NCBI GenBank assembly: GCA_000091205.1
Contig: AP006498.2
Origin: Cyanidioschyzon merolae
Taxonomy: Eukaryota
DNA: 64,000 nucleotides
Direction: 5' to 3' (one strand)
A program made the translations under genes and the position numbers. The stretch's first letter is position 1. Each line of letters begins with the position of its first letter. This document shows positions 1 through 47,927 of the stretch, in pieces. The notes under the pieces were generated by a model. The model did not search any database. It worked only from the letters and a program-made list of their open reading frames with translations, and was not told the origin of the DNA.

Positions 1-159
1 CCCCCCATTCCTCGGATCACATTGATTAGGTGATCTCAGTGCGGGAGCATCTATGACATCGGCGTCTTTTATTTCAATGGCGATAGGGTATTCTCCTCTG
101 ACGGTTTGATCTGGGCTCATACGCGTCTGGTATAGCGTCGTTTACTACATACCAAAGCT

Positions 160-3100
160 AATTGGAAATTACCACGGGCGCTTTGCTTTTTCTGGTTTAC
201 TGAACTTTTGCACTGACCAGACGGATTAAATCGCTTCTTTGATATTGGTTTCGAAAAAATCCTCTCTCATTCCGAACGATCCCTGTGCATTGCATTTCTT
301 TTTCTTACTCTCGGCCTTATTGGTCGTTTCACACTCTTATCCTACGCCGGATGCCTGCCGTATGCACCAGCCGTAATCTAGTTATCGCTGGTGCTGGTGC
401 ACTTAGGAAATACAGCAGCCTTGACAATCTACTGAGCGTGGCGGTGGAGGCTTGTTTCATGCAACGCGGAAGCATGGCTATTTATATTTCTTGGAGCCTC
501 CAAGCTGTACTATCAGCCTTCCTGCCTGGTAGTCGCGGTGCTTTGTATTGGAAGACCGCCACGCCAAAATTTATATTCAGATGCAGCATACTTGGTCATG
601 ATCCAACAATCAAATGCGTTCGACTGAGATGCTCAGGTGCGGTTCATCCCTCGCCACTGAAAAGTCACACGGAGGACAGGCCGGTTCGTTCTCGCGGCTC
701 GCACACCTCCCGCCTAATCTAACAGTGTGACCATACGCAAAAACTTCTCTCTTCAACGTTTCCGGTTGGTGGCGATAGTACTTGCTATTCCGTTTGTGTA
801 TATTGTTGTACTAGTTGGCATCTTCTATGTCGTGCGCCCTGGTGACGCATCGCGAAATCTGGCCGTCACCTCACACTACGTGCGTCTTGCCGATCAAAAG
901 AAACGTGTTAATGACCTCTTGTGGAGCGACTGCTGTATCGGGGCCACTTGTTTTTGCGATCGAATCGTATCAAATTGTAGTTTTGGCTTCAATAGCGTTT
1001 CAATCTTCAAGTAAATTTATTCAACTGATTTTCGCCTTTCAAAGCAGAAGCGTCCAATGAGTTTTTCTCCCAAATAAAATTGACTCATGTAAATCAAGGG
1101 GGTGGGGGGTACGGGGTGGCAGATGTGCCCGGATGTCAGAACGAAACGAGACATGCTGCCCAGCGAAGAGGGCCAGGAAAAAAGAAGAAGCAACATTTGG
1201 AGGCCTTAGATCGAAGGCTGCCATGGTGACGTCTGTACGACGAGATGGTGGTGGAATCCTATCTTCTCCAACATATCAATGATCCGTACGACTGATTGTT
1301 GCGAGACGCTATCAGAAAGCGTGTCGGTTCGTACGCCAGGTATGTTTGTACCTTCTCTTTAGGACGTTGGCATTTGGAGAGCGAGCTGCATCCGGAGGTA
1401 ACGCACATCGCAGAAGTGATGTTTCCGGAAGAAATTTTCCAAAAGACTTTCATCAACCACCTGATTGTTTTTAATGGGAAAACATCGAGGATAAATGAGC
1501 GAGTGCATGCCTTTCTCAAAAATTACGCCAAGTACCTCGTCATCGGTGCTGTACACAGGGGTGACGTAGATATTTACGAATACAGGGCAAAGAGGTGCCT
1601 CAGGAATGTGAGGAACCGTAGCATCGCAACCCTCGATTGTTTCATGATACGCGTCGTCTTTGCGCTGTACCCGGGCCTATTTCGCGAAGCGATGCTTGCA
1701 ATCATCGATGGTATGAAGAACGATCGCCAGCATGAACAGGAGATCAGATTCGTCGACAAGAGGACATCACGCCCGAGAAGGAATATTGCTTTTGTTATCC
1801 GCGCGACTATTCTAAAACATCGTTCACGCTTGGGGCTTGTCGACCCTAGAGAAAAACTGTCAGATATGATCAAAAAAGACGAAGAAAGATTTTAGTCCCT
1901 CATCCTGCCCTACTTCATTTTTCCGACCGAAAACTCGAACGCAAGGCTGACATGGAGCTGAGTTTGGAAAAATGACCGACGGGAGAACGGACGTTGAAGA
2001 GCTTCTCCAGATGCGCTTCGTTGTCGTCCGGTTACGCGAGTTCAAGTCACATGTTGTGAATATCGACTCTAGAGTCCTTTACGCCTTCATGAAAGAGTTC
2101 TATCCAGTGCTCGATATAAGCAACAAAGGGGCCACCGGCGAAGACCGGGACACCTACTGGAAGAAGCATTTCGATTCCAAGTGTCCCAAACCGGCCAAAA
2201 AAGGTATTCACGGGGACCATCGATAACGATGATGGATACATATGGGTACATTAGTAGCGGTTGTAAGTACTTCGTCCTATCTCGTCTTCGTTGTCGCCGT
2301 TGCCGATGCACGAACAGAAGAAGATGGGCGATGGAACGTATAATCGCCACGAAAACGACTTTGTCGTCGACCTTAACCCTAGGAACACGAATATCATAAC
2401 AATCGCAATACCCGAGTGTGCGGAAGATGGTACTGAATGTAACGTACGTCAGAGAGACATGCATCTTTTGAGGCTCTCGAGAGCGAGATACTATCGAGAA
2501 TCCTGTATAATGAATGCAAAAAAGAAAATTGCAGCATGGAATGAAGGAATGAAAGAGCATATGGAAGCTATGGGCGAGGTGACTAGCCGCGGAGCGGACT
2601 ATAAAGCTTTTCGGAAATTCATGGAAGTTCGCGTCGCTCATTGGGATGCGCTGTGGAAGGAGTATACAAAGCCCCGGTGGGCTCGTCTGCGAATAAATTT
2701 GTATTGCGGGAACCAGCGGGCGTTCGCCAACTTTTTCAATCAATTGGGTGCCTTGAAATAGGATGACAGTCAGAGGCTCGCAGTAGCGTATGGATCAGGG
2801 CGATGGAAGACCCAAAAGGGACTACTCCAGCTCTGTCGACAAGAACATACAATGTGTGTTAACGGCGTTTCGTCACGATACCTGTCGATGAGTTTCGAAC
2901 GTCCTATACACACCATGAACTGGGTTATACACTTCAGAGAGTGGAGGTAGAAAAGGGCCAGCGGAGCCCTGAGGATATAGAAAAGTACGGACCGCTGATG
3001 GAGGAGCAAATGGAAAGGCGAACGAAAGTCCGAGGGCTACTCGCATTGGTGAGTGCAACTTCCAATGGCAAGTTACGTATGGGGTTTGTGAACAGAGACT

Positions 3101-3317
3101 TTAATGCCGCTATCAAGATACGGAGGTGTGCGATGCTGGAGAACAGACCTCCAGAATAGACAAGAATGATCTTTGTTGGACAATATCCCAAAGTCGGATT
3201 ATATGAGAAAAAGTTTGAGCCAGTAGTAGGTGGCCGGTACAAAAAGACGGGGAGGCGTCTGCACGTTAGTTGGAGACGTCTTGTCTAGTGCGGGTTTCTC
3301 GCCACTACTGTACACTG
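160..3317 (+). mobile_element. Copy A of a TnpB/Fanzor-like element. The left boundary is uncertain and may reach the window start; the right end is at the conserved ...GCCACTACTGTACACTG.
   Basis: Nucleotide and peptide homology to copy B (21440..24635), traced by eye from about 160 to 3317 (about 60-75% identity). It contains a decayed Fanzor-like reading frame. Homology to copy B stops exactly after CACTG at 3317. Confidence 0.55.
1296..3288 (+). pseudogene. Decayed TnpB/Fanzor-like nuclease gene, copy A. Frameshifts and stops split it into ORFs 1296..1895, 1972..2226, 2291..2761 and 2941..3159.
   Basis: RuvC-I-like ENDFVVDLNPRNTNIITIAIPE. RuvC-III signature FVNRDFNAAIKI (D-x-N-A-A-x-N-I). 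A shared tail PVVGGRYKKTGRRLHVSW is followed by TAG at 3286..3288. The pieces lie in different frames, so the gene is not intact. Confidence 0.6.
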
Positions 3318-4034
3318 TTGTCGTTTGACTTAGAACGGCGTTGTTGGTGTCAGGGCTTCGATGCATAATATGTTTACGCTTTCGTGTCTTGTAATCTTCC
3401 GTTTTCGTGCTTTCCACTGCAGGAGTGGTAAAATTGTGCAACTGTAATCCACTTCTGCTTCACAGCCGTCTGGTGCCATTCTATATGATGTATCAGTGTC
3501 ACTTTCTTTTCGGTTTTTTTGAGACAATGTATTCCATCACTGATTCTGATATTTTTTCCTCGTATAAATTCCTGAATGCCTTACACCACCGCTTCGAGAG
3601 TCAAGCAACAGAGCAGACCGTTAACATCCACAAATGTGAAAACAGTCTGACGGAACGCCTCGCAGCTTGACAGCCTCCACGACATCTCCAAGCTTCGATG
3701 CATGTGTATCGCGGATCGACCTGTCTCAAGTGACCAACAGGACCTGCTATTTTCAGCCACGGCTCGATGATGCATCACATCTCGTTTCCATTCTATTGTC
3801 AATCCACAAATTTTGCGATCGCGTGGATCCATGGATGCAACCTCACCCATACATCTACAGGGCTCAGGTTCCATTCATGACCAACGTACCTTACAATATG
3901 CTGTTTGAAGCCTTCTTTGTTATAAATAACATGTTTTCATCACCGCTCGTTCATACATTTCAGACAGTAGGCGTAGCAGCTCATGATGGGGCTCACGTCC
4001 TGGTCGACCGTGGACTCTGCATCAGCTTCGCTGC

Positions 4035-6323: not shown

Positions 6324-8883
6324 AGGAGAGACTTAGTCGTGTTCCCTAAAACAGCACGCCGGGGAACAGGCTCTTCAAAAAGAGCGACAAAAACTTTAGT
6401 CACTTACCAGCAGCCTTTGTAAAAAACCTAGGCGGGACTCGCCTGAACGCGTATCTCCCGTGCGTAATCGTTGGGTTCCGCCATGTCGCCGCCGCGGCGA
6501 ACGCACACGTGGCAGAATGGTAGTTATGCCCATGTTTTCGTGACATAAAATTTGCCGTGACATCGATGCCCCATTGACGATTTCTAATAGCCCGGCCTCT
6601 CGAGGATATCCAAGGCACTTGCAGGTACTGCTCTTATTTCCGTGTCTTCTACGTACACGGATTTGTAGCGTTTAGGCATTAGCAAACGTTACGCAGCACA
6701 TGCCACCTCCGGCTTCGGAAACGAGACATATTTCTTCCGTCATTGCTGCTTTCTTTTGCTGATGCTGGAGACCTTATCAATGCGATTGCAAATAATTGGT
6801 TGTGTCCTCCGCGCAGGCCATATTAATTACGACCATTCCGGAGAGGAGACTGCGATTAAAGTCTATTCTGTGCCCTATGTTACCGATGGAGTCCGAACAT
6901 CACATTTGTATGATGTTAGATGGATGAATGCAGCAAAATCTTTCTGCGTACGTATGTTTCGACGAAGAACGTGAAAAAAAAACTTTGCCGTCAGGCACCT
7001 ACGCACTGGTGTAGTATGAGCCTCCAAAGTATTCATTTGTATAGAGATAAAAGACAGATCCAACAATCATCCCGCTATCAAGCAGCCTCAAAAGCTTGCT
7101 GCGACTCCGGATGCGCGAATGTCGCTGATACCCTACAGTGAACCAACTACTTCGCCATACAGCTGAGGCCGTTGGCCCGGAGCGTAGCACCCGCTGCGGG
7201 CTTGGGACTCTTCTTCTTTCTAGGACCCAGCAGGGCGCTGATACAGCCTTATTGCCGGCTCTGCGAAACAGTACGCTGGGAAACCACAGCGACCAGGGCG
7301 CCTATGAGACGCATGCCGCCGGTGGTAGTACCAGAAAAGCTGAACTAAAGTATTTTACTCTCAGCTCCCTTGTACGATCAAACCGGCACCGAATATGTGG
7401 GGTTCACGCTGACGCCTATGGCTGGTGGCGACTCGACCCGCTGCTTCTCGGACCACGCACCCCGACCTTCCTCTGGCAAGGACTACGCCTGTGACTGCTG
7501 TCGCCATGTGGCATCGAACTCGAATCCGTGGGCCGGGTCGACGCCCCGTGTTCCCGGTGAAGCGAGCAAGGGTAGAATTCGAAAGCTCACCAAGTGCGAA
7601 CGGGTTCGCCAACACTCGCTCATACAATATTTGAGCAAGAGTGCTGCTTTAGCCAACCTGTTACGCGCAATCGGTCATGTCCAGAATATTTTTTGCCCGT
7701 TGCGCTGCCCAGCCCGGGGCGAGCGCCGTGAATATATATTGCCTCGTGCACGAAAAAATAAACAATGCATACGGATAGGCACATTCTATGGGGCATATTC
7801 CTAGTAGGTGATTATGGGGAAGGTCAGTGAGACGACGGCAAATCCCGTTTGAATCGAGTAGCCAGAGAACGTGAACTTGCGCTTATACCAGACAATCTGC
7901 AGGGGACGGGCCGTCTTGCCCAGCGCATTGTGCGATACTTTCCAGTAATCTGACACCTCAGAAATAGCTCTAGTACAGCTGGGAATTTGATTCAGGGCAG
8001 GACCGTTGACCCTGAGCTCCATACAAGTGCGCCGAATCCAGAATCCAGCCCAAGCGCCACTCGCACACAAGATAGATCCCAATTGTTCAGAATTTTTACG
8101 CATACGTCCTGGTGGTACTCGGGTGTGCGCAGCCTCTGGATTCGTTGTCCATCCCGTAGTTGCCGTTACCTTTCTCTCTAGAATTTGATAGTGTGCGCGT
8201 CATGAGACCTCGCCCGCCGCTCTGTGTACTAACCTTCAAGCCCACGTCTTGGGCGTTACCGCTGCCAAGGAAATGAACAAAATACACGGAGAAGCATGTA
8301 CCATAAGCTTGTGTGAATTCTAGTTTCGTCCCTGGTACACCAGACTTCTAGTCGGGCCTTTTTCATTTTCGATGGTAAACGCAGTCGCCTAACACCTCGA
8401 TGGGCCGTTTATGGAGTAAAATATTTCGCAAGGCACCTCATACGTCACATCTGCTGCTGATGTGTGACCAAGAACGGGGAAACAATAGCTGAACACCCTT
8501 CCAAGTTGGTGCTGCGTCCAACTGCCCGCGTTTCCAACTACCTGCGCTTCAGTAGCCCAAGACTACTGCATCGCATGCAGACAGTAAGATTCCCGCTGAA
8601 TTTGCGGAGCACGGCATCACCTCGCGCTCAAGAACCCAAAGCCGCGAATGACGCCCCCGGTAGACAGCCGAGCCAGCGGGATGCGCAAGCACCGCCACGA
8701 AAAACCAGGGCACAACCACCATACGAGCAATGCTCTCCGGGTGCATGCCGATCCCGAGTCGATTTCGAAAACGTTTCTAACGCTGTACAGAAAAACGTTA
8801 TGCACGGACGTATGCGTATGACGGAAACAGACAGTACCGCTGTAACTCCCAGAACGAAGCATTGAGGATCACGCAAAGCTGCG

Positions 8884-17448: not shown

Positions 17449-18030
17449 TCACACCTTTTCGCTTTCGAGGACCTTGTCCAGTAAACGAGCAGCTTCGTTC
17501 TTTGTGAGCAACAGAGCGAGAGCGAAAGCATCAGAGAGAACAAACGACGAATGTCGATGCTGGGTGCCTGAAACGATGACTCTGGCTCCGTGCTCGAGTC
17601 GGTAGTGGCGCATGCAGTGGCATCTTGCGTGTCGGCGATTGTTGTAGCAGTTAACGCCACCGAGAGCACATTCTTCGAAAACCGCTATTGTTCGGCGGGA
17701 TTGGCAGTGAGCCGCTTGGGGACCGACACACAGCCGTTTCGGTGGAGTCTCACGTAAGGAGAGACGGTGTTTGCGACCAGTTTTTGGCAGTCCATGTCTC
17801 TGATAAAACTGAATGACTCCAAGGACGACCAGCTTTCGGTGCTTTGGTCTCAGGCTGGAAACGTCGCCGACTAGCGCTGGCTGTGCGAGGCACTCCGAGC
17901 TGGGGCAGAAAATTAGCCATGCGTCAACATGCGCTCGCAACCATGCACGCCTCAATACCTGATTCGGTTTACAACAACTATAGAGCGCTGGATTCTTCGG
18001 AGCTTGAATTTCCGCTCGAATCGCTCGCAT
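17449..18030 (-). CDS. Hypothetical Cys/His-rich protein. Its 5' end overlaps the stop of the next gene by 53 bp, so the true start may differ.
   Basis: 193-aa ORF with several CxxC-like and C/H clusters (CCKPNQ, FCPSSEC, CHCMRHYRLEH). I do not recognise a family. Confidence 0.35.
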   Translation of the reverse strand: MRAIRAEIQAPKNPALYSCCKPNQVLRRAWLRAHVDAWLIFCPSSECLAQPALVGDVSSLRPKHRKLVVLGVIQFYQRHGLPKTGRKHRLSLRETPPKRLCVGPQAAHCQSRRTIAVFEECALGGVNCYNNRRHARCHCMRHYRLEHGARVIVSGTQHRHSSFVLSDAFALALLLTKNEAARLLDKVLESEKV

Positions 18031-21000
18031 CCGGTGAAGATGAGCTCGTTGTGGACGTACTGGAGGTCGTGTCGGCCACGGAGGCTACCTCTTCATCTGC
18101 TGTCTGCGCCTGTACGTGAACTGGTCGCTCCCGAATGATCCTTCGCAACTTGGAGACTGGTTGCTGCGGCTGCGGCTGCCCAGAGAATGATACCGACTGC
18201 GCAAATGCCATGATAAGCTCGAGGCGGCCTTCGAGGCGGACGAGTGCCTCCCGCAGGCGACGCTGCTCCTCAATGGCGTAATACAGCGCGACCATCGCCT
18301 CGCGAACAGATTGCAAATTCGCACCGTGCTGCGGCAAGCGAGCATCACGCTGACTGAGCAAAAAAGGAGCGTGACATCGAATAACTGCTCGAATCCACAA
18401 TGATAATGCCGGTGCACGAACAGAATGTGAACAAAAACGCGCCACCAACGCTCCAAGTAACGAGAGGATCGCGCGCGCGGGCAGTTTCCGCACAGTGCGA
18501 GATGCGCCAGCTGCGGTCTGGACTGCAGCGAGTGCCCTGTCCAACAACTGGTTATCGTTTGCATCCAACGCTTGAACAATCAAGGTTGCGACGGTGTCCA
18601 CTGCCAGCGGGCGCTCTCCGGAACTCTTGTTGAACAGCTCGGGTGCCGATGCAACACTCGCCTGCTGCTGCACATACGAAAGTTGCTCGGCTAGCGATAA
18701 GAGCTCGTTCCCAGCCATAATGTTCGCAGAAGACGCTGCTGGATCTACGGGCTCTGGCAAGAGCGCGGTTTTCTGGTGCGATGCCGCCTCAACAGCGTTC
18801 AGCTTCATGCCAACATTCGCTGCCGCTCCGTGCTCGTCATTCCCAGGAATCCGCTGTATACTGGTGCATACGCCATCCGCACCATCTGCGACGACGCTGG
18901 AAGTCAGCGACAGGCTCGGCGGCATGGTTTGCGTATCCAGCGCGTGTTTCTTTCGCTCTGAATCCGAAGGTGCCGATGCTTCAACGGGCAGCTGCGCGTA
19001 CCCCAGGATGCCACCCGAGTGATTCGCTCGAGCCCCGTTCAAGACCGGAGTATTTTCGTTGGTATGCACACTGTCGGATGAGATCGGGTTGCTGTTCGCA
19101 CGTGCGACGTTCGACGATCGCTGGTGCTCGACTTTTGATAGCGCATCGTTTTGGAGACTGATGACGGGCGCCGCACCGCTCTCGCTACCGTTCATTGTCG
19201 GCGCGTCCTGCGACCACAGCTTCCGCGGCACAAACACAATTTTTGGTTGCTGAAGGCTTCCGTAAAACAAGGCAAAGCCAAGCTGCTGCTCGCCGGCATT
19301 GTTCACCCAGCGCATAACTGAAGCACCACTAAAGCAAGGCTCCTGTGGCTGCAATATCAACAGCGGATGGAGCACAGTCGAGCGCTTCTCGCCAGCTTTC
19401 ATCGCCGACACCTGGCCAGGTGTTGATAGGCGCTCTTTCACCCCGAATAGCTGTGCACTGCCGTCCCCGAGCACGGCCAGCAGAAACGTTTCGGGGCTGG
19501 CATCCATCGCAATGCGAGCAGAGTCCGCATCGGCGGCGTTTGACGCTCTAGGAGATACCGCATCTCGACCAACTGGGTGCTCATCCAGGGCGTGGTCCGT
19601 CGCTGTACCCGACGAGCAGATACCGTTCGTCGTGCGGGAAGTGTCGGCAGCACGCTTCATCGATGGCAAGCGCGCCTCTGGCGAGTGCTCCGCAGCCACC
19701 AGCTGGACGACTGATGCAGGCGCACTGTTCACCGCATGGCAGAGCACAGAACGCCAGGGCGGGCTCTCGATAAAATTGGCATTTTCTGAGTGAAGAGCCG
19801 AACTATTCTCTTGATCCAGTCTCCAGAGTGAAATCAGAGTATCGCCGAGCGCTGCACTCGCCAGCAGCACAGGTCCTGCGAATGCAAGACAGCATATGGT
19901 ACTCGAGTGCCCCGTGAAGCGCCATATTCGCTCAACTTCTACGTCCCGGGACGCACCGGGCTCCCGTGCGTCCGCACACCATCGCGGAAGCTCGTAAGCG
20001 CTAAGGCACTCACCCGCAGCGACAGCAAGGTAGCGATCTGTGGGGGAAATCGCCAAGGCCTGCAATGAAGTTCCGCGTGTGTGCATGATGCGCAACCTTC
20101 GATGGTGCTGTGTATCACTCCAGCAATAGACGGCATTGCACTGGCCATCCACAGTTCTGTCTGAGGAGCGTCGCACTTGCAATGCCCAAACAATCGGGTC
20201 GCTGTCGCGACATACCGCGTATACATGCTGGAGGCAACCGCCTCGCAAATATTCCTCCTGTCGCGGGGAATGTGCCGATACCACCAAGGATTCGATCCGG
20301 CCTGGCAAGCGGCAGACGTCACAAAGTTCAAGTGTTAGCGCCAAGTCGATCTCGCTTCCTGTCTTCGTTTGACGACGCTGGGAAGCGTTCAAATCTACGC
20401 ATCGACTGATATCAACAGTGAAGAGACGCAGGGCACCGCTCTCGTAGCCGACGACGATCAAGAGCCTCGTACGCGCTTGCGGGTATCCTTGCTCCGGGGC
20501 GGCGGGAAAGCGATTCAGCTGCTCCGCGTTGGCTGCAGGACTTGGGTCTACGACATGACTGCGCTGCCGTTTCGCGGGCTCAAACTCGTTCGACTCGTCA
20601 AAAGAACACTGCAGCGCCGTGATCCTTCCTAAAAACGGCCCCGCACCAAGCTGATTCATTGCCGCTAGCGAGAGATCCGGCGACAGCGACGGATCGTCTC
20701 GCCACTTTCCCACTAAGATGCATCCAGGGCTTTCGGACAGGCTAGCCCCATCCCCGTTGCCTTCAACAGAAGGCACACGATCATGTGCATAGACAATAAG
20801 CCTTCCGTCCGACCAGGCCATGCAGGTGCACGCAGCTGGCCAGTGGGGTATAGACGCTTCCGAGGTCGCTTCGCTCTCGCGTCTTCGCTTCGAGTTCCTC
20901 AAACTCAGGTTTCTCGCGGGCTCCTCAACTGCAGGAGTACGAAGCGCAATAACTTGGACGTACTGACCCTGACGCAGGTTGTTCAAAGTACCGCAAGGCC

Positions 21001-21196
21001 CGACGCGGTGTGGAAGCGGTGCGGCGGACACAAACGCTCCTTTGCCACTGCGAGATTCCAACCTAGCCTTCGATCGTGCATGCTGATATACACTGGAATC
21101 GTTTCTCAAATCTTTCGCCTGAACGCGTTCGAGCATTGTGGACGCTCGACACGCTCTTCCGGAAACGAATGGCGCCTGACGCCACCGCCAGTTCAC
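17978..21196 (-). CDS. WD40-repeat protein with a C-terminal Utp12-like helical domain (small-subunit processome component, UTP5/WDR43-like).
   Basis: 1072-aa ORF. WD-like blades (LAISPTDRYLAVAAGECLSAYEL; HSSTICCLAFAGPVLLASAALGDTLISLWRL). The C-terminal segment LVIQALDANDNQLLDRALAAVQ...RKLPARAILSLLGALVARF...ALSLWIRAVIRCHAPFLLS...LQSVREAMVALYYAIEEQRRL...LEGRLELI has the spacing of the Utp12 domain. The N-terminal 150 aa are S/A/T-rich low complexity. Confidence 0.55.
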   Translation of the reverse strand: MNWRWRQAPFVSGRACRASTMLERVQAKDLRNDSSVYQHARSKARLESRSGKGAFVSAAPLPHRVGPCGTLNNLRQGQYVQVIALRTPAVEEPARNLSLRNSKRRRESEATSEASIPHWPAACTCMAWSDGRLIVYAHDRVPSVEGNGDGASLSESPGCILVGKWRDDPSLSPDLSLAAMNQLGAGPFLGRITALQCSFDESNEFEPAKRQRSHVVDPSPAANAEQLNRFPAAPEQGYPQARTRLLIVVGYESGALRLFTVDISRCVDLNASQRRQTKTGSEIDLALTLELCDVCRLPGRIESLVVSAHSPRQEEYLRGGCLQHVYAVCRDSDPIVWALQVRRSSDRTVDGQCNAVYCWSDTQHHRRLRIMHTRGTSLQALAISPTDRYLAVAAGECLSAYELPRWCADAREPGASRDVEVERIWRFTGHSSTICCLAFAGPVLLASAALGDTLISLWRLDQENSSALHSENANFIESPPWRSVLCHAVNSAPASVVQLVAAEHSPEARLPSMKRAADTSRTTNGICSSGTATDHALDEHPVGRDAVSPRASNAADADSARIAMDASPETFLLAVLGDGSAQLFGVKERLSTPGQVSAMKAGEKRSTVLHPLLILQPQEPCFSGASVMRWVNNAGEQQLGFALFYGSLQQPKIVFVPRKLWSQDAPTMNGSESGAAPVISLQNDALSKVEHQRSSNVARANSNPISSDSVHTNENTPVLNGARANHSGGILGYAQLPVEASAPSDSERKKHALDTQTMPPSLSLTSSVVADGADGVCTSIQRIPGNDEHGAAANVGMKLNAVEAASHQKTALLPEPVDPAASSANIMAGNELLSLAEQLSYVQQQASVASAPELFNKSSGERPLAVDTVATLIVQALDANDNQLLDRALAAVQTAAGASRTVRKLPARAILSLLGALVARFCSHSVRAPALSLWIRAVIRCHAPFLLSQRDARLPQHGANLQSVREAMVALYYAIEEQRRLREALVRLEGRLELIMAFAQSVSFSGQPQPQQPVSKLRRIIRERPVHVQAQTADEEVASVADTTSSTSTTSSSSPDASDSSGNSSSEESSAL

Positions 21197-21439
21197 GAGT
21201 AGATCAGATGGCTCCCAAGAGCAGGAGTCCTTCCTAGAATCGACTCACGTTGTTTCAGGTTCTAAAAGAGAAAAAGGACACAACACACACTAGAGCGCTT
21301 CACCACGAGAGCTCGTTCTACAGATCCCTCTGTTAGCGCAAGCAGTAGCACGGCGATACCGTAGTCCGTAGCAGGCACGCTGGCAGGGCCGACGTCGTGC
21401 CCTCCGGCACGCACCACGACTCCGGGTGTCCGTCGATCG

Positions 21440-24400
21440 CCGGCGGCGGCGGCAGCGGGTGCAATTCGTTTTGTTTTCGATGACAGAAGGCGTTTCCATG
21501 GATCAGGGGATCCCAGATTGCCGGATGGACGGGTATTGGCATTCGGGAATGCGTCCAGGATGCTGCAGCCTATCTCCAAGTTCCATTGCTTGTACTTTCT
21601 CTCGGAAATACTGGTTGTTCTGTGGGTTCTATCGTGAACAGAGTGCCTGCGTCGCTGCTCCCGCCGTAGCGTCTATATCGCTGGAGTGGATGCAGCACGG
21701 AGATAGAGCTGTGCTTTGTCGTACCACTGAGGGTATCTGTTCGAGGAACGCTTCACCTGAAACGGTGTCGGGATACATAGTGAGTTTGGGAGCCAGAAAT
21801 CTGTCCAGACAAGCCTAGTGCCTGCGACAGCTCGAATTGATATTCTGGGCGTCCACTGCGACCCGGGCGACGCCCAGATGCAGCGGAACTGCCCCGAGTC
21901 TCAGAGTCAACTGCGTTGCGTACGAGTTGCTCAGATCTCGCTAGAGCACCGGGCACGGAGGAGAGCATGGAGCACGAGCCTGGCAGACTCGCGCGGCTTG
22001 CAGGATCTGCCACCTATACGGTAAACTGTCGACAATATGGAGACATTTTCCCGCTTTTAACGTTTATCTCAGAGGACGAAAGAAATCGTTGTATCGTTGC
22101 TAGTTGGTGAATCGTTTTTGCTCTTTGTTTGCATAGCGCGGTCGATACGCGCACCTCCATATCTGGTAGTCACGAGATGCGCCTTGCATGTGGCAGTTGA
22201 AGGGAAACGCGAGACTGACCATTTTTTGACGTTTTGTTTTACTGTACAAGTCGCATTTGCGTTGAGCGCATAGCAAATTATAGTGTTTCATCTCAGTTGT
22301 GTTTTTACCTCCAAGCAAGTCTATTCAAGTGATTTTTTTGCGGTTTATAACTCAAGCGTTCAATGAGCGTTTTTTTTCAAAAATTAAAAAAAAAAAAGCA
22401 AGTATGGAGAAGGATGGTGAGGATCCTGGAGGCCTGGTATCACCGCTTGGCAGAAAAAAAAGCGAAAAACAGCGCCAAACAAAGAGGAACAGGAGAAGAC
22501 GAAAGAGCAGACGGTGGAGGCGTGACGTCATAAGCTGCGAGAAAGATGACAGTGCGACGAGATGGTAGTGAAAGCCTGCCTCCTTGGTCATATCAAGGAA
22601 CCGTACAGGCAAAAGTTGCTAGAGCCCATCAGAAATCATGTCAATTCGTAGTCCGCGAGCATTACAAAAGCCTTCTTCACGACTGAGGTACTTGGAAAAA
22701 TAGATGCATCGCGACGTTACATACATCGAAGCAGTCGAGGATACGGAAAAAGCTTTGAGCAAGGCCTTCATCCACCACTTCACGATTGGCACGGAGACAA
22801 TGTCGGGGAGCAATGAGCGAGTTCACGTCCTCCGGGAAAATTACGCCAAATATCGCTTCAACGGTACTCGATACAGGTGTGATGCGGATATTTGCACCTA
22901 CGGGGCGATCAAGTACCTCACGAGCCTGAAGAACCAAAGGACCATCAACCTCGAACATTTCATGGTGCGCTCCATCTTTACACTCCACCAGGGGCCTGTC
23001 TGGAAAAGAGAGCTAGGCTATTATAGATGGCATCACGAACGATCCCCATCATGAAGATGAGATCGAATTTGTCGACATGAAGACATCACGCATGAGAAAG
23101 AGTGAGGCTTCTGCGATCCGTACGGCAGCACCGGAGCACTGTTCGGTTCTGGGGCTGGCGAATCCAGCAGAAAACTGATCAAATGTTAAAAAAGATGTAG
23201 AAAGATGTTATCCCCGTATCAAGCGGTATTTCGTGTTCCTAAATCGAGAACTCGACCGTAAGGCCGAAAACAGCTGAATATGGAAAAAATGAAGAGTCGG
23301 AGAGACGCAAGGCTGTCCTGATGGGGAAGCGCTTCAATATCGTCACGTTGTGCAATATCAAGTCACATCTTGTGACAATCGACTCCAGAATCCTTTACGG
23401 CATCATGAAGGAGATCAGTCCATAGTTCGATGTAAGGAAGATATGGTTCACCTGCGAAAACCGAGAGACGCACCGGAAGAGTATCTTCGACTTCAAACGT
23501 CTCAAACGAGGAAGGAAAAGCCATCCATGGGGACGATCGAAAGCGATGGGGTAGCCATGTATGTACACTATCGGCGGTTGGAGGCGGATCGTTCTGTTCT
23601 GTCCTCGGGTTCGCCCTCTGCGAAATATGAACATTAGAAGGAGGTGGATCCCGCGACGCAGAAAGTGCATGAGAACGACTTTGTCTTTGGTGCGAACCCC
23701 GGGGGTACGAATATCATAACGATCGCAGTACCCAAGCGTGCGGAAGATGGTGTTGACGGCGATTTACGTCAGAGAGACATGCGTGTTTCGAGGTTCTCGA
23801 GAGCAATATACTATCGAGAATCCGGTAAAATGAATGCGAGGAAGAAAATTGAGACACGGAATGCAGGAGTGAAAGAGCACCTGGATGCTTTGAGCGAGGT
23901 GACGAGCCGCGGAGCGGACTGGCAAGCTTTTCGGGAGTTCATGGAAGTTCGCGTTGCTCGCTGGGAGGCGCTGTGGGAGGAGTGTACAAAGCCCCGATGG
24001 GCTCGTTTGCGTATGAATTTGTAGTATGGGACACAGCGCGCGTTCGCGAACTTTTTGAATGAGTTGAGAGCCCTGAAGGAGGATGAAAATCAGAGGCTCG
24101 TATTAGCGTACGGAGCAGAGCGATGGACATCGAGAAAAGGATGTATGCCAGCTCCAACGACAACAACGTACAAGGAGTGTGCGCGGCGTTTCATTACGAT
24201 ACATGTAGATGAGTTCCGAACGTCCTATACACACCATGAACTGGGGTGTACACTTCAGAGGGTCGAGATGGAAAAGTGCCAGCGGAGCCCTGAGGATATC
24301 AAAGAGTACGGAGTGCTGACGGAAGAGCAAATGGAAATGAAGGCGAAAGTTCGAGGGTTACTTGCACTAGTGAGTACAACTACCAACGGCAAGAAACGGA

Positions 24401-24635
24401 TGGAGTTTGTGAATCGTGAATTTAATGCTGCTATCAATAAAAGATGTGCGGTGATCGAGAAAAGACCTCCAGAGTTGACACGAAGGAATTTTGTTGGACA
24501 ACCTCTTGAGGTGGGATTATATGAGAAAAAGTTGAAACCAGTAGTAGGTGGCCGGTCCAAAAAGACTGAGAGGCATCTGTACATCAGTTCGAGACGTTTT
24601 ATCTAGTGCGGGCCGTTCGCCTCCCCTGTGCACTG
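21440..24635 (+). mobile_element. Copy B of the TnpB/Fanzor-like element, about 3.2 kb and the most complete copy. The right end is at CACTG, 24631..24635.
   Basis: Collinear homology to copy A across the whole length: a non-coding left part (21440..22400), a basic NLS-like ORF, then N-terminal, middle and RuvC regions. The 29 nt after the stop codon are conserved with copies A, C and D. Confidence 0.6.
22400..24606 (+). pseudogene. Decayed TnpB/Fanzor-like RuvC nuclease gene, copy B. The RuvC half (23644..24606) is in one frame broken by a single in-frame TAG at 24022; there are upstream frameshifts near 22568/22704 and 23054.
   Basis: Basic N-terminus MEKDGEDPGG...GRKKSEKQRQTKRNRRRRKSRRWRR. 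RuvC-I-like [23 protein letters not shown], in which the catalytic Asp is replaced. ...HVDEFRTSYTHHELGC... and the RuvC-III signature EFVNREFNAAINK. The tail KLKPVVGGRSKKTERHLYISSRRFI is followed by TAG at 24604..24606. Confidence 0.65.
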
Positions 24636-24953
24636 CCGGCGGCAGCGTGTCCATCTCACCAGTGTTCCTTCACCGCGCACTGAAAAACAAACAAAAAAGA
24701 GAAAAAAAAGCGCACAGATGGAGAACGCTGGCCTATGGAAACGATTTGTCCATTAATTACCAGACCGCATTCGTTTATTCTGTATGAATTCATACATAAA
24801 TGTACTAAAAGGACAGTGCGCGGCGTGACTGCCGTCGCGCACGCAGCTCTACGTGCAGCGCATTGGCACACAACTGCAGTTCCCCTAGTTGTACGATACG
24901 GCCTGTTGCCGCTGGACCCCGCAGCTTGCACAGCACACTGGTGACACGTCGAA

Positions 24954-25385
24954 ATGCCTGATACCAGGATCACGCTCCGAAAGAGAAGACCATACGCGAC
25001 GAAATCGAATAAGATTCGGAAAGTGAAGACTCCAGGTGGGATCCTCAGAGTGCACTACCTGAAGAAGCGAACCAAAGCACCGCGTTGCGGCGATACCGGA
25101 ACAAAGCTGAACGGAGTTCCCGTGCGGAGGCCGCGTGAACTTGCACGCCTCTCAAAACCGAAGAAAAGCGTATCTCGCGCATATGGAGGAGTACTCTGCG
25201 GTAATGCTGTGCGGGATAGGATTCATCGAGCGTTTTTAATCGAAGAGTCGAGAGCCGTGAAGCAAAGGCTTCGGCAACAGGAAGCGATCGCCCGGCAAAC
25301 CAAAACAGCGGCTGAACGGGAAGAATCCCGGAAGAAAAAGTCGAAGAAGAGCGGAGCAAGTGCAAGCACTGTCAAAAAGGCATAG
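24954..25385 (+). CDS. RPL34: 60S ribosomal protein eL34 (L34e).
   Basis: RITLRKRRPYATKSNKIRKVKTPGG ... KAPRCGDTG ... LNGVP...RPREL.RLSKPKKSVSRAYGGVLCGNAVRDRIHRAFLIEE matches eL34 ([26 protein letters not shown]...KAPKSACG...[40 protein letters not shown]). Confidence 0.9.
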   Translation: MPDTRITLRKRRPYATKSNKIRKVKTPGGILRVHYLKKRTKAPRCGDTGTKLNGVPVRRPRELARLSKPKKSVSRAYGGVLCGNAVRDRIHRAFLIEESRAVKQRLRQQEAIARQTKTAAEREESRKKKSKKSGASASTVKKA

Positions 25386-40589: not shown

Positions 40590-40930
40590 CAGCGAAGAAG
40601 AGCAAATGACGAAGAAGAGGAGAGATAGGCGAGGAAACTGTTTGCCTGATGTGGTGATGACGAGTCTGTAATGGAGCATCGGGCACGAGTTCTAGAAATC
40701 CTTGCACTGCTGAGTTCAACCAGCGGCAACATAAGTATGGATTTTGTCAGCCGAGAGTTCAACACCGACATGCATATCACACGGTATGCGGTGCTGAAGA
40801 AGAGACCCAAGTAGCTTACGCAATCAAACTTCGTGGACCAGCCTCTGATGCTTGACATGTGATTCGATAAACTGAGACCGATACCAGGCGGCCGGTCCAA
40901 AGAGGCAGGGAGGCGACTGCGCGAAAGTAG
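40590..40930 (+). pseudogene. Short 3'-terminal fragment (copy E) of the TnpB/Fanzor-like element (RuvC-III region only).
   Basis: It translates to ...EEEQMTKKRR...RVLEILALLSSTSGNISMDFVSREFNTDMHITRYAVLKKRPK.LTQSNFVDQPL...PIPGGRSKEAGRRLRE, collinear with the RGLLALVSTTTNGKKRMEFVNREFNAAINIRRCAVLE...NFVGQPL...PVVGGRSKKTERHL tail of copies A-D. Nucleotide similarity ends at 40925. Confidence 0.55.
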
Positions 40931-42120
40931 ATATATATACCATCCATCGACGTGCAACGTTATTCGTTTTAGAGAGTATACATTCGATACTGGACGCTCG
41001 CGACTGATGATTCGTTCACAAGGTCATGCCGAAAGCTCACAGAACTTGCCGCGTCAAATATTCGATTCCGTTAGAAAGACAACTGATATGCATTTTGTGA
41101 CGATTGACGAAATCGAGCACGCCAGCAGGATATTACCGCTCACGGGATATGCCCACAGAACCTGTGTCTCTTCCGTTTCCGCGGAAAAGAGTCTTGGACT
41201 CCGACATCAGTCATCTCAGCGATCGCTTCCAGCAGGGCATGCGACAGCGCAGCATGCGAAAGGGGGAATCGACGGACTGGAATTTCATGACTTGGCCTCC
41301 AGTCTGGAATTTCCCTCCAGTGCGTGCATTATCATGGACAATATTGCGTCCAACAAATCCTCTGTCAAATGGAACATCGTGCTCTTGCGTGTGCAGCGGA
41401 CAGCGTACTCGCCGAGGGCACCGCCCAGAAGAAGCCCGTGATTATCGGGTAGGCAACGAGCGGGGAAACGGAGGTCGACCTCGAGTGGCGCCCTCTCTAC
41501 CCGTAGACGACAGGTACCGAGCGATGAACCAGGCTTTAACGCGACACAGGGCGCCCTCTTGGTGAAGAGCGTGCGTTGGATATACGGGAACACCTGACTG
41601 CATACAAGTGTCAGCGCTGCGAAGGCCGCTCCGAGGCTTCACAGAAGAAGAAGCTGAAAATTGCAAGCAAAGCGTAGAAGTAACGTTCGCATATGCATGA
41701 AATGCTTCGAGACCAAGCGGAAGCGGGAAAAGCGGTACTTTATCGCTGCCACCAACATCCTTCGACTGCCTGCATCGGAGCTAGATAGACAGGGCAGACC
41801 GGGGTCCATCAACCAGGAGCTACGGGAGTCCCGACAAAAGCCTTCACAGACCAAAGCCGCATATGCCACTGCTGACGACACCGAGAAGGAACCGAAACTT
41901 TAGTTTGTACGCCCGAGTTAGAGGAGTCGCTCCATTTGATTCTGACGCGGCTGTAAAGCCACCTGAGAGAATCAACGAAGAGCAGCACCGTTCCCAAAGA
42001 TTGATCCGATTGGCAACCCGGACGCGAAGTACATACCCCATTCCGCATGAGCTGGGGTTTTGGCTGTCGTTGCAGGCGCTTTTGCGCAGAGCCAGAGGCT
42101 CCATATGCTACGAAGCGGTC

Positions 42121-44949: not shown

Positions 44950-45129
44950 TGTTGGAGTCAGTCCAGCTCTTGATACGAACGTGAAACAAAGTGAACGACT
45001 TGCAAGGAGTGCCTCCTGTTTGAACGCGGATAACAGCGTAACAAATAGTTATGAAGCGCTTTGGATCGTCGCACGGGGTATTGACGCGCAGCCTTTTGTG
45101 ATTTATTGTGCTGGATAGAAAACGTACAT

Positions 45130-45748
45130 TGACCATTCATCGTTGATTCCGTGATTAGATATTGGCATTCGGTGAACGCATCCATCATGGTGCACGCTAC
45201 CTTCAAGTTCCATGACTTGTACTTTTTATCGGATGTACTGGTTATTTCGTACGTTCTATTGTGCACCGAGGCTGCCTTGATGGTCAGCAAAAGTGCCTGT
45301 ACCGATGATTCGAATGCTGCGCAGAGACTGCGAGGCATTGCCATATGACTGAGGACGTCAGCTGGAGGTATCGTTCACCCGACACGGCATCGGGATTCAT
45401 GATCATTCTGGAAGCTGGAAAGCCGTGCAGAAAGGCCTGCTGCCTACTGCCTGCGGCAGCGCGAAGCGGTATGCTCGGAGACGATCGGGTCTCGGGCGAT
45501 GTCTAGATGCATCCTGTTCGCTGCTCTTCTCAGCGTAATCTTCGTTGCAGACGTTCTGCTCAGATCTCTCTTCAGCACCCGACACTATAGATGCCTACAA
45601 AGTACAATCACCGTTGACTCGTCCGTCTCTAGGGCGCTTCCGCTTTGGCGATAAACTTTCGTAAATACGGAGAACGTTTCCCTGTTAAAATGGCTACCGT
45701 AGATTGCCAGAGGGATTCTCTTATCTGGTTGCTCGTTGGTGGTTCGAT
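45130..45748. repeat. Left arm of a near-identical (>99%) inverted repeat of about 616-620 bp.
   Basis: Reverse complement of 46624..47258. Compared windows (45130..45200 vs 47190..47258; 45700..45748 vs 46624..46700) differ by a single base. The ORF pairs 45585..45878(-)/46612..46803(+), 45403..45585(-)/46803..46985(+) and 44958..45344(-)/47044..(+) encode identical peptides. Confidence 0.9.
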
Positions 45749-46623
45749 TCCGTTCTCTTTTGAATTTATTATGTAAGGAAAACGCCCGCTCATCTCCGAG
45801 TTCTACCGCTCTCCATGATAGAATGCTCTGCAGCTGAGACGCTTCTATATGTTGTCGAAAACACGTGGTGTCTCGCATTCATTTACGACAATGCAAGACG
45901 GCAGCAACCGTTGCAGAAATCGCCAAACAAGCATATCTCTCTGCTGGAAGGAATGAGTCCGATTCCTCGTTCGCTGCACGAGTTCAGGCTCAGATCGCAT
46001 CTCACTTGAAAGACAGCACGGGACTGTGACAGCCACTCGTGAAATGCCTGCACAGCAGTGCAGTGTTGTGCCATGATTTTTCTGATAGGCCAGGATGTCC
46101 ATAGGTACTCGTCACAGCGTGGATGTTCTCTTCTGGTTTGCCTGATGCATGAGCCCGACACAAGGATGCACAGACGGAGCGCGCTCGGCCGAAGCAGCGA
46201 ACCTCTGATTGACCCGAAAAGAAGCTAGCAAGACATGCGATTACATGCACACAGTCGCATTTTTGTGCATGTTCTTCGAGGCGCTCAGCGCAAGTCGCGG
46301 GCAGGGAGATGTTCGCACTCTTGAAAGTCGGGCCCGTACATGGTGAGGTTTTTGGTCGTGCCCTGGCGGCCCGCACTTGAAAGGCATCTCTCGGATGGGC
46401 GATTAAGTCTCGCATGAGCGCCGGTGCCGAAACGATCAGGTTTTCGTCTGCGGGTCCCATCGCTAAAGCAAAAAGGAAACTCTCTGGAATTGTATCAATC
46501 TACAATATACTGTTCATTTAAGAATCTATCCAACTTCTGAACACGCCATTGCCGAAACAAATAGGTTCTTCAGCTGGCGAGTGCAGTGCGTAGAAGCGAA
46601 TCCGGTCAACAATGAATGCGGAA

Positions 46624-47258
46624 CGCATAGAAGAACGGAATCGAACCACCAACGAGCAACCAGATAAGAGAATCCCTCTGGCAATCTACGGTAGCCATTT
46701 TAACAGGGAAACGTTCTCCGTATTTACGAAAGTTTATCGCCAAAGCGGAAGCGCCCTAGAGACGGACGAGTCAACGGTGATTGTACTTCGTAGGCATCTA
46801 TAGTGCCGGGTGCTGAAGAGAGATCTGAGCAGAACGTCTGCAACGAAGATTACGCTGAGAAGAGCAGCGAACAGGATGCATCTAGACATCGCCCGAGACC
46901 CGATCGTCTCCGAGCATACCGCTTCGCGTTGCCGCAGGCAGTAGGCAGCAGGCCTTTCTGCACGGCTTTCCAGCTTCCAGAATGATCATGAATCCCGATG
47001 CCGTGTCGGGTGAACGATACCTCCAGCTGACGTCCTCAGTCATATGGCAATGCCTCGCAGTCTCTGCGCAGCATTCGAATCATCGGTACAGGCACTTTTG
47101 CTGACCATCAAGGCAGCCTCGGTGCACAATAGAACGTACGAAATAACCAGTACATCCGATAAAAAGTACAAGTCATGGAACTTGAAGGTAGCGTGCACCA
47201 TGATGGATGCGTTCACCGAATGCCAATATCTAATCACGGAATCAACGATGAATGGCCA
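46624..47258. repeat. Right arm of the same inverted repeat. The arms are separated by an ~870-bp unique spacer (45749..46623).
   Basis: See the left arm. Arm identity breaks at 45748/46624 on the inner side and 45130/47258 on the outer side. Confidence 0.9.
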
Positions 47259-47927
47259 ATCTATACGCTTTGTCAAACAAAAAACAATAGAAATGAATCC
47301 GCTTACAGCGAGGATCCAGCGCAGACGCGTCGCCCTACCGCCATCATATTCCACAATTGTGTATCATTGTCCAAGATACCGAGCAGCCGGAACAGAGGCC
47401 TCCTCCCGAGCCTTTCGCACCGCCTTGGCGCGACGGCTTTTTGAAGACCAGTATTCCAGCCGCAGCACCTGCTGCGTTTGCCCAGAGAGCAGCAGCCGTT
47501 CCGTGTGTGTGCCCTTTCTGGTTTCGAACGCTGTATTGAAGCACATTTTACGCACTCCACAGGGAAACAAGTGTCAAAAGCGCGTGTTGCACTATCAAGT
47601 ACGGTTCGTTGCCTGCGACGCAACGCTAGGTACAACGCTGCGCCTTTGCTCCGTGGCGCAGTGTGCAGCCTGCGAGCCTGTGCGCCTTGTGCACAGTCTG
47701 TGCACTCGTTTCGAGACTATCCAAGCGCGTGCTCAGCTGAGCGTAGAAGGAAGAATAAGTTTTCGTGGCATAGGTAGCGCATTTCAAAGGTTTGGCGCGG
47801 AACCGAAAGACGCACGGGGCAATCGCCGCCTCTGCTGGCCGGAAAACCGTCATGAAAAGCAGGTTGTGCTGCGGGAACGGCGAATCAGAAATAAGTTGGG
47901 TTCCACTTCGAGCTCCGTGGTGCGAAT

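Follow-up and report, generated by a model that had tools for sequence, protein, structure and literature searches.

Fanzor proteins are the eukaryotic homologues of TnpB and have been shown to be RNA-guided endonucleases in other organisms. A CCCC zinc finger is present both in the Fanzor protein SpuFz1 and in the TnpB of ISDra2. In the Fanzor signature, the catalytic glutamate of RuvC-II occupies an alternative position (Ealt) just upstream of the zinc-finger position (PMC10711439, PMC10530073), and a C4 zinc finger (CxxC…CxxC) between Ealt and the RD of RuvC-III is the motif given by Bao and Jurka (PMC3627910). For the red alga Cyanidioschyzon merolae, the 3169-bp consensus DNA of the element CMe-1A and its 734-aa protein CMe-1 were published in the supplement of the same work (Bao & Jurka 2013, Mobile DNA 4:12; PMC3627910), and these authors, who defined Fanzor1, listed CMe-1 as one of its members. 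According to their account, the C. merolae genome holds about 150 copies of CMe-1A that are about 80% identical to the consensus and have no TIRs and no TSDs, some copies still encode intact proteins, and positions 1..635 of the consensus are 95% identical to a separate element, TE-N2_CMe (PMC3627910).

In this study, a window (i.e., the whole stretch of 64,000 nucleotides that was analysed) was examined for such elements. According to the original prediction, an extremophilic red alga carries several decayed copies of a transposon family with a TnpB/Fanzor-like RuvC nuclease, and this is supported by the published family, the sequence profile, the fold, and the catalytic residues. Its implied novelty, that of a lineage-specific family worth reconstructing, does not hold, as the consensus DNA and the 734-aa protein have been available since 2013. 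The window RPL34 protein is identical to that of C. merolae 10D (BAM81685.1 / XP_005537721.1). Judged from this single protein, the host is C. merolae 10D or a strain nearly identical to it, as very close strains may share the same sequence.

CMe-1A copies in the window

The published CMe-1A consensus aligns at five places in the window, namely:

199..3332, + strand: copy A, near full-length, consensus about 6..3148 plus the extension TTGTTGGTG, 74% identical
21475..24657, + strand: copy B, full-length CMe-1A, consensus 1..3161 (3153 bp aligned), 82.9% identical
40686..40975, + strand: fragment E, last ~320 bp of the element, consensus 2847..3167, 65% identical
59923..61081, − strand: copy C, 5'-truncated, consensus about 2093/2118..3169 plus the extension TTGATGGTG, 88% identical
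61044..62100, + strand: copy D, 5'-truncated, consensus 2106..3169 plus TTTGGTG, 78.5% identical

The loci belong to CMe-1A, a family described in 2013, and constitute no new family. They are very probably decayed insertions of a non-autonomous DNA transposon of about 3.2 kb, whose sole gene encodes a 734-aa Fanzor1, i.e., a eukaryotic TnpB homologue. Five homologous loci had been predicted, and blastn/tblastx together with the consensus alignment recovered them at nearly the same coordinates (B had been placed at 21440..24635); the peptides quoted for them are present in the translations. The consensus-aligned parts span 199..3323 in copy A, 59932..60981 (− strand) in copy C, which has one further repeat unit reaching 61081, and 61044..62093 in copy D. 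Pairwise DNA identities (blastn/tblastx) are 72% for A-B, 73% for B-D, and 81% for B-C. Copies C and D are arranged head-to-head; a recent inverted duplication was considered for this pair and rejected, as complementarity between the arms is no higher than 76-80%. The published CMe-1 protein is recovered almost residue for residue from the consensus of the window copies, with an ancestral length of 734 aa where about 700 aa had been estimated.

Every copy had been described as interrupted, and the alignment to the consensus bears this out. The open reading frame (ORF) of copy A has five frameshifts and 11 stops and has lost its start codon, that of copy B has six frameshifts and nine in-frame stops, copy C has two frameshifts and two stops, and copy D has four frameshifts, three stops, and a 26-bp deletion. 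Catalytic positions are affected as well: DEF has become DVF in copy C, i.e., V at the alternative glutamate, and the R of RD is a stop in copy D. The RuvC-I Asp, which had been assigned to A, C, and D, is retained in C and D; copy A, like copy B, has Asn at this position (VVDLNPRN in A). None of the five window copies can yield an active protein. Pfam scans of the individual window ORFs gave no relevant match, and Rfam and tRNA scans of the window were empty.

Copy B

The features of copy B are as follows:

21478..22124, + strand: 5' module, corresponding to consensus 1..635
22404..24606, + strand: remnant of the Fanzor1 ORF (734 aa), consensus 906..3110, with ATG at 22404 and the native stop at 24604..24606
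23695..23697, + strand: RuvC-I catalytic position, Asn in GANPG (reads GANPGG) replacing the Asp of DPG
24022..24024, + strand: TAG stop, replacing the Tyr of consensus NLYCGKQR
24211..24213, + strand: alternative RuvC-II glutamate (VDEFRTS), retained
24415..24420, + strand: RuvC-III, RE replacing RD (FVNREFNAAINK)
24532..24666, + strand: 3' terminal region, homologous to the predicted ωRNA-like structured end, with a degenerate structure (fold z = +0.6)

Copy B had been singled out as the most complete, which is not simply so, although no other copy is complete at both its 5' and its 3' end. Its RuvC half (23644..24606) lies in one frame with a single TAG, as predicted. However, the changes Asp to Asn and RD to RE accompany this stop, and since two catalytic residues are substituted, reverting the TAG would not restore activity. 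The TAG is polymorphic: an orthologous metagenome copy (L001) lacks it and reads NLYYGTQR.

A basic N-terminus of copy B had been taken for a Fanzor-like NLS. The Arg-rich peptide in question, GRKKSEKQRQTKRNRRRRKSRRWRR, is a frameshift artefact: a 2-bp insertion at about 22461 precedes it and shifts it out of the frame of the ancestral protein. In the true frame, the N-terminus of copy B reads KKKRKTAPNKEEQEKTKEQTVEA followed by a stop, where the consensus N-terminus reads GKKRKTVPSPEEQEKTKKQKREARRQR. The latter (GKKRKT…KTKKQKREARRQR) is basic, Lys-rich, and disordered in the AlphaFold2 model, so that a putative NLS-like function may still be assigned to the ancestral protein.

CMe-1 as a member of Fanzor1

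Both the sequence profile and the fold place CMe-1 in Fanzor1. PDB searches with phmmer of the consensus and with an HMM of a shallow five-sequence alignment gave no match. The profile of the 61-sequence family (HMM of alignment A4) reached only the solved Fanzor1 proteins PpFz1 (5.9e-23), SpuFz1 (4.3e-17), and GtFz1 (3e-13) in the PDB, and no unrelated family. The match of CMe-1 to Volvox and Chlorella Fanzor1 proteins in phmmer was significant. Among Pfam families, Cas12f1-like_TNB was matched by 19 of the 61 clade members, and the window consensus gave a weak match to PF07282 (E 0.046), with relatives reaching down to 2e-8; PF26935 (DUF8286), precomputed on many relatives, gave no score in the Pfam search performed here.

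An earlier AlphaFold model made from close relatives only was poor (pLDDT 57) and was discarded. The AlphaFold2 model of CMe-1 is confident (pLDDT 82.9, pTM 0.80) and has the WED, REC, split RuvC, and NUC parts folded as in solved Fanzor1 proteins. In Foldseek, Fanzor1 structures take all of the top seven places (E 1e-16 to 9e-14, probability 1.00, target-normalised TM 0.49-0.72), with whole-length matches to SpuFz, PpFz, and GtFz at E about 1e-16 and target-normalised TM 0.70-0.72.

The catalytic motifs agree with this assignment. For RuvC-I, the family consensus has GADPG, with D invariant in 61 of 61 relatives and DPG present in 58. The alternative RuvC-II glutamate (E of VDEFRTS) is invariant among the 61 relatives and aligns with IDEFRTS / LDEYKTS of PpFz1 and SpuFz1. 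For RuvC-III, the consensus reads NRDFNAAINI, in which all of the 61 relatives keep R, N, A, and N and at least 90% keep D; the predicted identity of the DxNAAxNI segment with RuvC-III stands, as it aligns to RuvC-III of the solved Fanzor1 proteins. By these residues, the active site of CMe-1 is of the Fanzor type, with the Asp of DPG, the relocated Glu in DEFRT, and the RD.

Absence of the canonical zinc finger

A point against the proposed reading is the sequence of CMe-1 in the region from Ealt to RD, TSYTHHELGCTLQRVEMEKCQ…LLALVSTTSDGKKRMEFVNRD, which has no CxxC. In a sample of the best matches, the first CxxC is absent in 60 of 61 clade members and the second in all 61, and the lineage is treated here as a candidate zinc-finger-less Fanzor1 variant. 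At E < 1e-3 it comprises 3700 representatives at 50% identity, 476 of them with E < 1e-30. An unlikely but broader proposal is that CMe-1 is part of a large Fanzor1 lineage in which the finger was lost in nearly every sampled member while the D-E-D triad stayed invariant, with a strongly structured 3' RNA predicted for the CMe-1A family itself; intact members of the lineage, if active, would be zinc-finger-less RNA-guided nucleases. If true, C. merolae would hold zinc-finger-less versions adapted to about 45 °C. No statement on zinc-finger loss in this lineage was found in the literature within reach of the search.

The 5' module and the 3' end

Two stand-alone elements in the window confirm that the 5' ~635 bp of CMe-1A are shared with TE-N2_CMe:

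45119..45756, + strand: TE-N2_CMe-like element, matching only CMe-1A consensus 8..634, 73% identical
46631..47275, − strand: second TE-N2_CMe-like element, inverted relative to the first, consensus 4..635, 73% identical

TE-N2_CMe has the 5' end of CMe-1A and not its 3' end, where an ωRNA would lie. At the 3' side, copies end at a common terminus at 53 unrelated insertion sites, with only random similarity beyond it. In the sense orientation, the majority 3' sequence of these 53 independent sites (135 nt) folds into a long closed stem and, after it, a terminal hairpin. Its fold energy is -66.2 kcal/mol (z = -5.4), a stability reached by 0 of 200 shuffles, and the antisense strand folds at -41.8 kcal/mol (z = -2.1). 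The reconstructed ancestral 3' end is thereby predicted to be strongly structured and ωRNA-like. As just 59 nt follow the CMe-1A stop codon, any ωRNA of the element must overlap the ORF. The structure has no Rfam match, and its compensatory covariation is weak (15 cells, compared with 2-11 when the controls were slid), biased by construction, with the structure derived from the same sequences on which it was tested, and is not counted as support. Two 3' subfamilies exist, as the majority sequence ends in …TCGTTCGACTTTCGAACGGCG where the published consensus has …CAGCGTTTTTCTTTTGAAAGGCG. The published end (hairpin GCCGCCA…TGGCGGC plus a T-run) was considered as a terminator-like signal and dropped, as it represents a minority subfamily in the 53-site alignment.

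The element encodes no transposase and has no TIRs and no detectable TSD; the four 5' ends compared all have T-rich flanks, and their small number does not allow a TAM or TSD to be defined. Transposition of CMe-1A would have to be supplied in trans. The protein of an intact master copy would reach the nucleus via its Lys-rich N-terminus and would bind a sense-strand ωRNA from the last ~135 nt of the element (ORF end and 3' UTR). With flanking sequence as guide, element-free alleles would be cut, which by analogy would favour retention or homing of the element. Such a role of guide-directed cutting has been established elsewhere for TnpB with its ωRNA. The 5'-only sharing with TE-N2_CMe is left unexplained by a homing model based simply on an ωRNA.

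Selection, activity, and mode of movement

Mismatches to the consensus in 52 copies fall on codon positions 1/2/3 as 1354 / 960 / 2884. The 80 metagenome loci are best protein matches, a choice that inflates the codon-position signal; the third-position excess is also seen in the window copies, whose choice did not depend on protein similarity. This excess indicates past selection on the CMe-1 protein. It would also suit a host multigene family of cellular paralogues, as would the long protein-coding similarity among copies. Such a family is extremely improbable here: stops and frameshifts run through every window copy, C, D, and E are truncated to varying extents at the 5' end, ~900 bp of 5' sequence are non-coding and common with another repeat, and about 150 genomic copies have been reported (PMC3627910). 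It is refuted by the terminus analysis, with one defined 3' end at 53 unrelated sites and random sequence beyond; the copies do not share flanks as segmental duplications would. The CMe-1A family might still be active in the species, with only dead copies in the window and intact masters elsewhere making a working RNA-guided nuclease. This is conceivable, though unlikely. The reported intact proteins (PMC3627910), the selection signal, the polymorphic TAG of copy B, and a near-complete 752-aa ORF in a metagenomic copy (P0121) from hot-spring samples holding C. merolae DNA speak for it. Against it, the native start and some 35 aa at the C-terminal end are missing from P0121, all window copies examined have lost catalytic residues or frame, and no insertion polymorphism was seen. 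Insertion B is common to the window and the metagenomes at 99% identity and is therefore old and fixed.

A Helitron-like, rolling-circle non-autonomous element might have captured the Fanzor1 gene when reading through the 3' end of TE-N2_CMe, in which case the 3' hairpin would be a DNA transposition signal and not an ωRNA. The missing TIRs and TSDs, the 5' 635 bp that form a separate element, and a 7-12-bp terminal hairpin (CGTTCGA-CTT-TCGAACG) a few nt from the 3' end are in line with this, as is the resemblance of the TE-N2_CMe-like 3' end (…GTTGCTCGTTGGTGGTT) to the CMe-1A 3' extension (…GCGTTGTTGGTG); a passage of PMC3627910 describes Fanzor1 genes carried by Chlamydomonas Helitrons. However, the CMe-1A termini are not the Helitron 5'-TC … CTRR-3', no Rep/helicase was found, and the comparison rests on four 5' ends only. 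Folding is much more stable for the sense than for the antisense strand (-66 vs -42 kcal/mol), which points to G·U pairs and an RNA rather than a DNA structure. Capture of this kind is decidedly unlikely; it concerns the mode of movement and is compatible with the gene being a Fanzor1.

Implications and comparison with known systems

With the CMe-1A assignment, about 9 kb of the window are now annotated as dead copies, plus two TE-N2_CMe elements, and copy B is corrected as being more than one mutation from function. Beyond published work, the analysis adds the predicted ωRNA-like structured 3' end of the reconstructed ancestor and the third-codon-position substitution excess. A candidate zinc-finger-less clade with a conserved triad, the ωRNA-like 3' structure, the selection signature, and a slightly longer 3' terminus may be of interest for thermotolerant Fanzors; these side observations are increments on a known system.

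The window copies agree with published CMe-1A, the same family, in copy divergence, absence of TIRs, and the TE-N2_CMe-like 5' module, whereas 3' conservation at the 53 insertion sites runs beyond the published end by TT and ~7 G/T-rich nt. The solved Fanzor1 nucleases SpuFz1 (8GKH), PpFz1 (9CF0), and GtFz1 (9CER) resemble CMe-1 in whole-length fold (E 1e-16 to 9e-14) and share the TDG strand of the WED domain, DPG, dEFrTs, and nRDxNAaxNI. They differ in having only 12-15% sequence identity to it and in the two CxxC pairs of the NUC/TNB zinc finger, both of which are missing from CMe-1 and its clade. In SpuFz1 elements, inverted repeats of 30 nt are present and the ωRNA lies downstream of the ORF, whereas CMe-1A has no TIRs and 59 nt past the stop. 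In bacterial TnpB, the ωRNA overlaps the ORF, as any ωRNA of CMe-1A would. The TnpB/ωRNA systems of IS200/IS605 (e.g., ISDra2) and Cas12f have the RuvC fold and RD-NAA-NI in common with CMe-1, and IS200/IS605 elements, like CMe-1A, have no TIRs or TSDs and a structured 3' end overlapping the gene. Foldseek matches of CMe-1 to bacterial TnpB/Cas12f are partial only (E about 2e-2); unlike bacterial TnpB, CMe-1 has its glutamate in the alternative position and a long helical N-terminal half, and unlike IS200/IS605, CMe-1A has no TnpA partner and resides in a eukaryotic host.

Identity of the repeat family

When the window was compared with itself, copy B (~22474..24642) matched 1158..3324 at 72% DNA identity, minus-strand 59985..60982 at 81% and 61093..61971 at 73%, as well as, at the protein level, a short segment near 40670..40928. 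A majority consensus built from the four longer copies is open throughout a 323-aa C-terminal half, which fits the descent of decayed copies from one coding ancestor. A database search with this consensus returned hundreds of JGI metagenome proteins at 66-88% identity; C. merolae's own DNA is also present in at least some of those samples. The peptides quoted in the original prediction were found in the window ORF lists.

A Fanzor1 family, CMe-1A, has already been described in C. merolae (Bao & Jurka 2013, PMC3627910), with about 150 copies, each ~80% identical to a roughly 3-kb consensus, without TIRs, with undetermined TSDs, and with 95% identity between its first 635 bp (5' end) and the separate repeat TE-N2_CMe. 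The supplement of that paper contains the 3169-bp consensus and its 734-aa protein (CMe-1). All five window copies align to it:

Copies aligned to the CMe-1A consensus
199..3323, copy A, consensus ~6..3148, 74% identity
21475..24657, copy B, consensus 1..3161, 82.9% identity
60981..59932, minus strand, copy C, consensus 2118..3169, 88% identity
61044..62093, copy D, consensus 2106..3169, 78.5% identity
40686..40975, copy E, consensus 2847..3167, 65% identity

The window repeat family, its consensus and its protein were thus already published in 2013, and the self-comparison and consensus alignment agree on the dispersed multi-copy repeat that had been predicted.

Copy B occupies most of the intergenic region (21197..24953) between two divergently oriented genes:

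17978..21196, minus strand, 1072-aa ORF
24954..25385, plus strand, RPL34e

The identity of the RPL34 protein, whose gene lies 300 bp downstream of copy B, to BAM81685.1 marks the host as C. merolae 10D or a near-identical strain. Four metagenome contigs contain this locus as well, copy B included (99.1-99.5% identity), and since the insertion is common to all four at 99% identity, it appears fixed.

Membership in Fanzor1

Single-sequence tests were nearly blind to the Fanzor relationship, and deeper sampling was decisive: with a single sequence, Pfam returned nothing better than E = 0.046 (Cas12f1-like_TNB), and no PDB entry was matched by sequence at that level. Searching with the full consensus brought up intact relatives sharing 31-43% identity (P0136-P0139), and a profile of these, run against 1.84 billion cluster representatives, retrieved 3700 relatives, including 476 below 1e-30. 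When 61 diverse members were aligned, the invariant columns included D of DPG, E of DEFRT, and R, N, A and N of RD-NAA-NI; the signature published for Fanzors (PMC10711439, PMC10530073) is DPG combined with a glutamate relocated beside the zinc-finger position. PF07282 was matched by 19 of the 61 (best 2e-8). Against the PDB, the 61-sequence profile retrieved exactly three proteins, all Fanzor1, namely PpFz1 (5.9e-23), SpuFz1 (4.3e-17) and GtFz1 (3e-13); DEFRT aligns to their RuvC-II' and RD-NAA-NI to their RuvC-III, the assignment originally proposed for the DxNAAxNI segment.

With the 61-member alignment as input, AlphaFold produced the confident model of the consensus protein that had been called for (pLDDT 82.9, pTM 0.80). 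Its seven best Foldseek matches were all to Fanzor1 structures, with E-values of 1e-16 to 9e-14 and a target-normalised TM reaching 0.72, whereas those to Cas12, TnpB, Fanzor2 and Cas12f were far weaker. CMe-1 also shows direct similarity to the Fanzor1 proteins that the 2013 paper reported from Volvox and Chlorella. Profile, fold, signature residues and the published CMe-1A match all support a TnpB/Fanzor-like RuvC nuclease family; the observation was real and its interpretation correct.

Decay and selection

The CMe-1A copies in the window are dead, in line with the decay noted at the outset:

Damage in the window copies
Copy A: 5 frameshifts, 11 in-frame stops, start codon lost, RuvC-I Asp to Asn
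Copy B: 6 frameshifts, 9 in-frame stops, RuvC-I Asp to Asn (GANPG), RuvC-III RD to RE
Copy C: 2 frameshifts, 2 in-frame stops, DEF to DVF
Copy D: 4 frameshifts, 3 in-frame stops, 26-bp deletion, R of RD to stop

As predicted, the RuvC half of copy B stays in one frame, interrupted by one TAG (24022..24024). This TAG is polymorphic, being absent from a metagenomic orthologue, which is dead too because it retains both catalytic substitutions. The arginine-rich peptide of copy B that had been proposed as an NLS did not hold up: it is translated downstream of a 2-bp insertion near 22461, and the ancestral frame reads KKKRKTAPNKEEQEKTKEQTVEA*. An NLS is nevertheless plausible in another sequence, since the N-terminus of the consensus (GKKRKT…KTKKQKREARRQR) remains basic and the AlphaFold model shows it as disordered.

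In the RuvC half of 52 distinct copies, mismatches to the consensus at codon positions 1/2/3 numbered 1354/960/2884, or 0.089/0.063/0.190 substitutions per site (consensus 2200..3110), a signal inflated by the selection of the fetched loci for protein similarity. The window copies, which were not so picked, show the same third-position excess (C 23/23/55, D 42/34/77). Judged from codon positions, this excess implies that much of the between-copy divergence arose under purifying selection on the protein, which agrees with the unusually long-lasting coding capacity noted by Bao & Jurka (PMC3627910). One metagenomic copy has a near-intact 752-aa ORF.

Modules and truncations

Two stand-alone TE-N2_CMe-like elements form an inverted pair with ~875 bp between them:

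45119..45756, plus strand, element 1, only consensus 4..635, 73% identical
46631..47275, minus strand, element 2, only consensus 4..635, 73% identical

Both are matched at 67% by the upstream portion of copy B (21534..21956). A possible further old fragment is 7150..7336, which aligns weakly (66%) to consensus 224..416, in the TE-N2-like 5' module. Copies C and D form a large imperfect palindrome in head-to-head orientation (59932..62093, symmetry centre near 61018), with arms only 76-80% complementary; both are truncated at almost the same consensus position (2106-2118), within the ORF tandem-repeat region, and may stem either from an old inverted duplication or from two truncated insertions that happened independently. 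In that region, just upstream of RuvC-I (consensus about 2117..2196), a ~75-bp (25-aa) unit, KHEEKKEADPATQEVQDNDFVVGA, is tandemly repeated 1 to 5 times among copies (P0121, P0003, P0125, others; L085 5221..5376), and the model has pLDDT below 50.

The 3' end and mode of movement

Eighty further copies, picked from metagenomes by protein similarity, represented 53 distinct insertion sites. Their 3' ends are conserved to the published terminus and continue with TT (33/40 and 37/40) and ~7 G/T-rich nucleotides, the sequence being random by +12. The extension is TTTGGTG or TTGWTGGTG (L005-L084; window 3324..3332, 59923..59931, 62094..62100), and the TE-N2_CMe 3' end carries a similar GTTGGTGG motif. 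There are two 3'-end subfamilies, the majority …CGTTCGACTTTCGAACGGCG and the published …CAGCGTTTTTCTTTTGAAAGGCG. Four 5' flanks were available, and every one is T-rich. The last 135 nt of the majority sequence have a predicted fold of -66.2 kcal/mol (z = -5.4; 0/200 shuffles equally stable), in which a long stem, closed by CAGUAGUAGGUGG and CCGCCACUACUG, joins the ORF end to the 3' UTR and a terminal hairpin of 12 bp comes after it. The antisense strand reaches only -41.8 (z = -2.1), an asymmetry that favours structure at the RNA level. In the window copies the structure is largely lost (z = -0.6, +0.6, -2.6). Since compensatory covariation was weak, in a test biased by construction, and an Rfam scan gave no match, an ωRNA of CMe-1A is inferred from the predicted fold.

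By homology, an intact CMe-1A copy would encode an RNA-guided endonuclease; with one gene and no transposase, the element is non-autonomous for movement. That the copies are instead a host gene family, rather than a repeat, is excluded by their common terminus at unrelated sites, their 5' truncations and their pseudogene state. As to how the element moves, a Helitron-like capture model is an alternative of low probability, favoured by the lack of TIRs and TSDs, the subterminal 3' hairpin and a 5' module that is another element; the 3' end of that other element (…GTTGGTGG) is similar to the CMe-1A terminus. Against the model, CMe-1A does not have TC…CTRR termini, and its asymmetry of folding points to RNA.

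Comparison with known systems

The clade holding CMe-1 is a large Fanzor1-like group (3700 representatives at 50% identity, 61 sampled). The CCCC zinc finger found in SpuFz1 and ISDra2 TnpB (PMC10432273), a defining feature of these proteins, is absent from CMe-1 and essentially all 61 sampled members: between DEFRT and RD, both CxxC pairs are missing in nearly all, and the only common Cys is the single one in an RGLLWC motif. D, E and RD are invariant or nearly so in these same proteins. No mention of this loss was found in the literature searched. Many relatives (P0010, P0014, P0121, others) have weak precomputed matches to PF26935 (DUF8286), which had no score in a local Pfam scan; Pfam apparently includes a domain of unknown function that overlaps this Fanzor1 protein. 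Points left for specialists are the clade without the zinc finger, the ωRNA-like end and the 3' terminus that reaches slightly beyond the published one. CMe-1 differs from SpuFz1 and ISDra2 TnpB in lacking the zinc finger, and the 3' structure of CMe-1A is consistent with a putative ωRNA that would overlap the gene end, as in bacterial TnpB.
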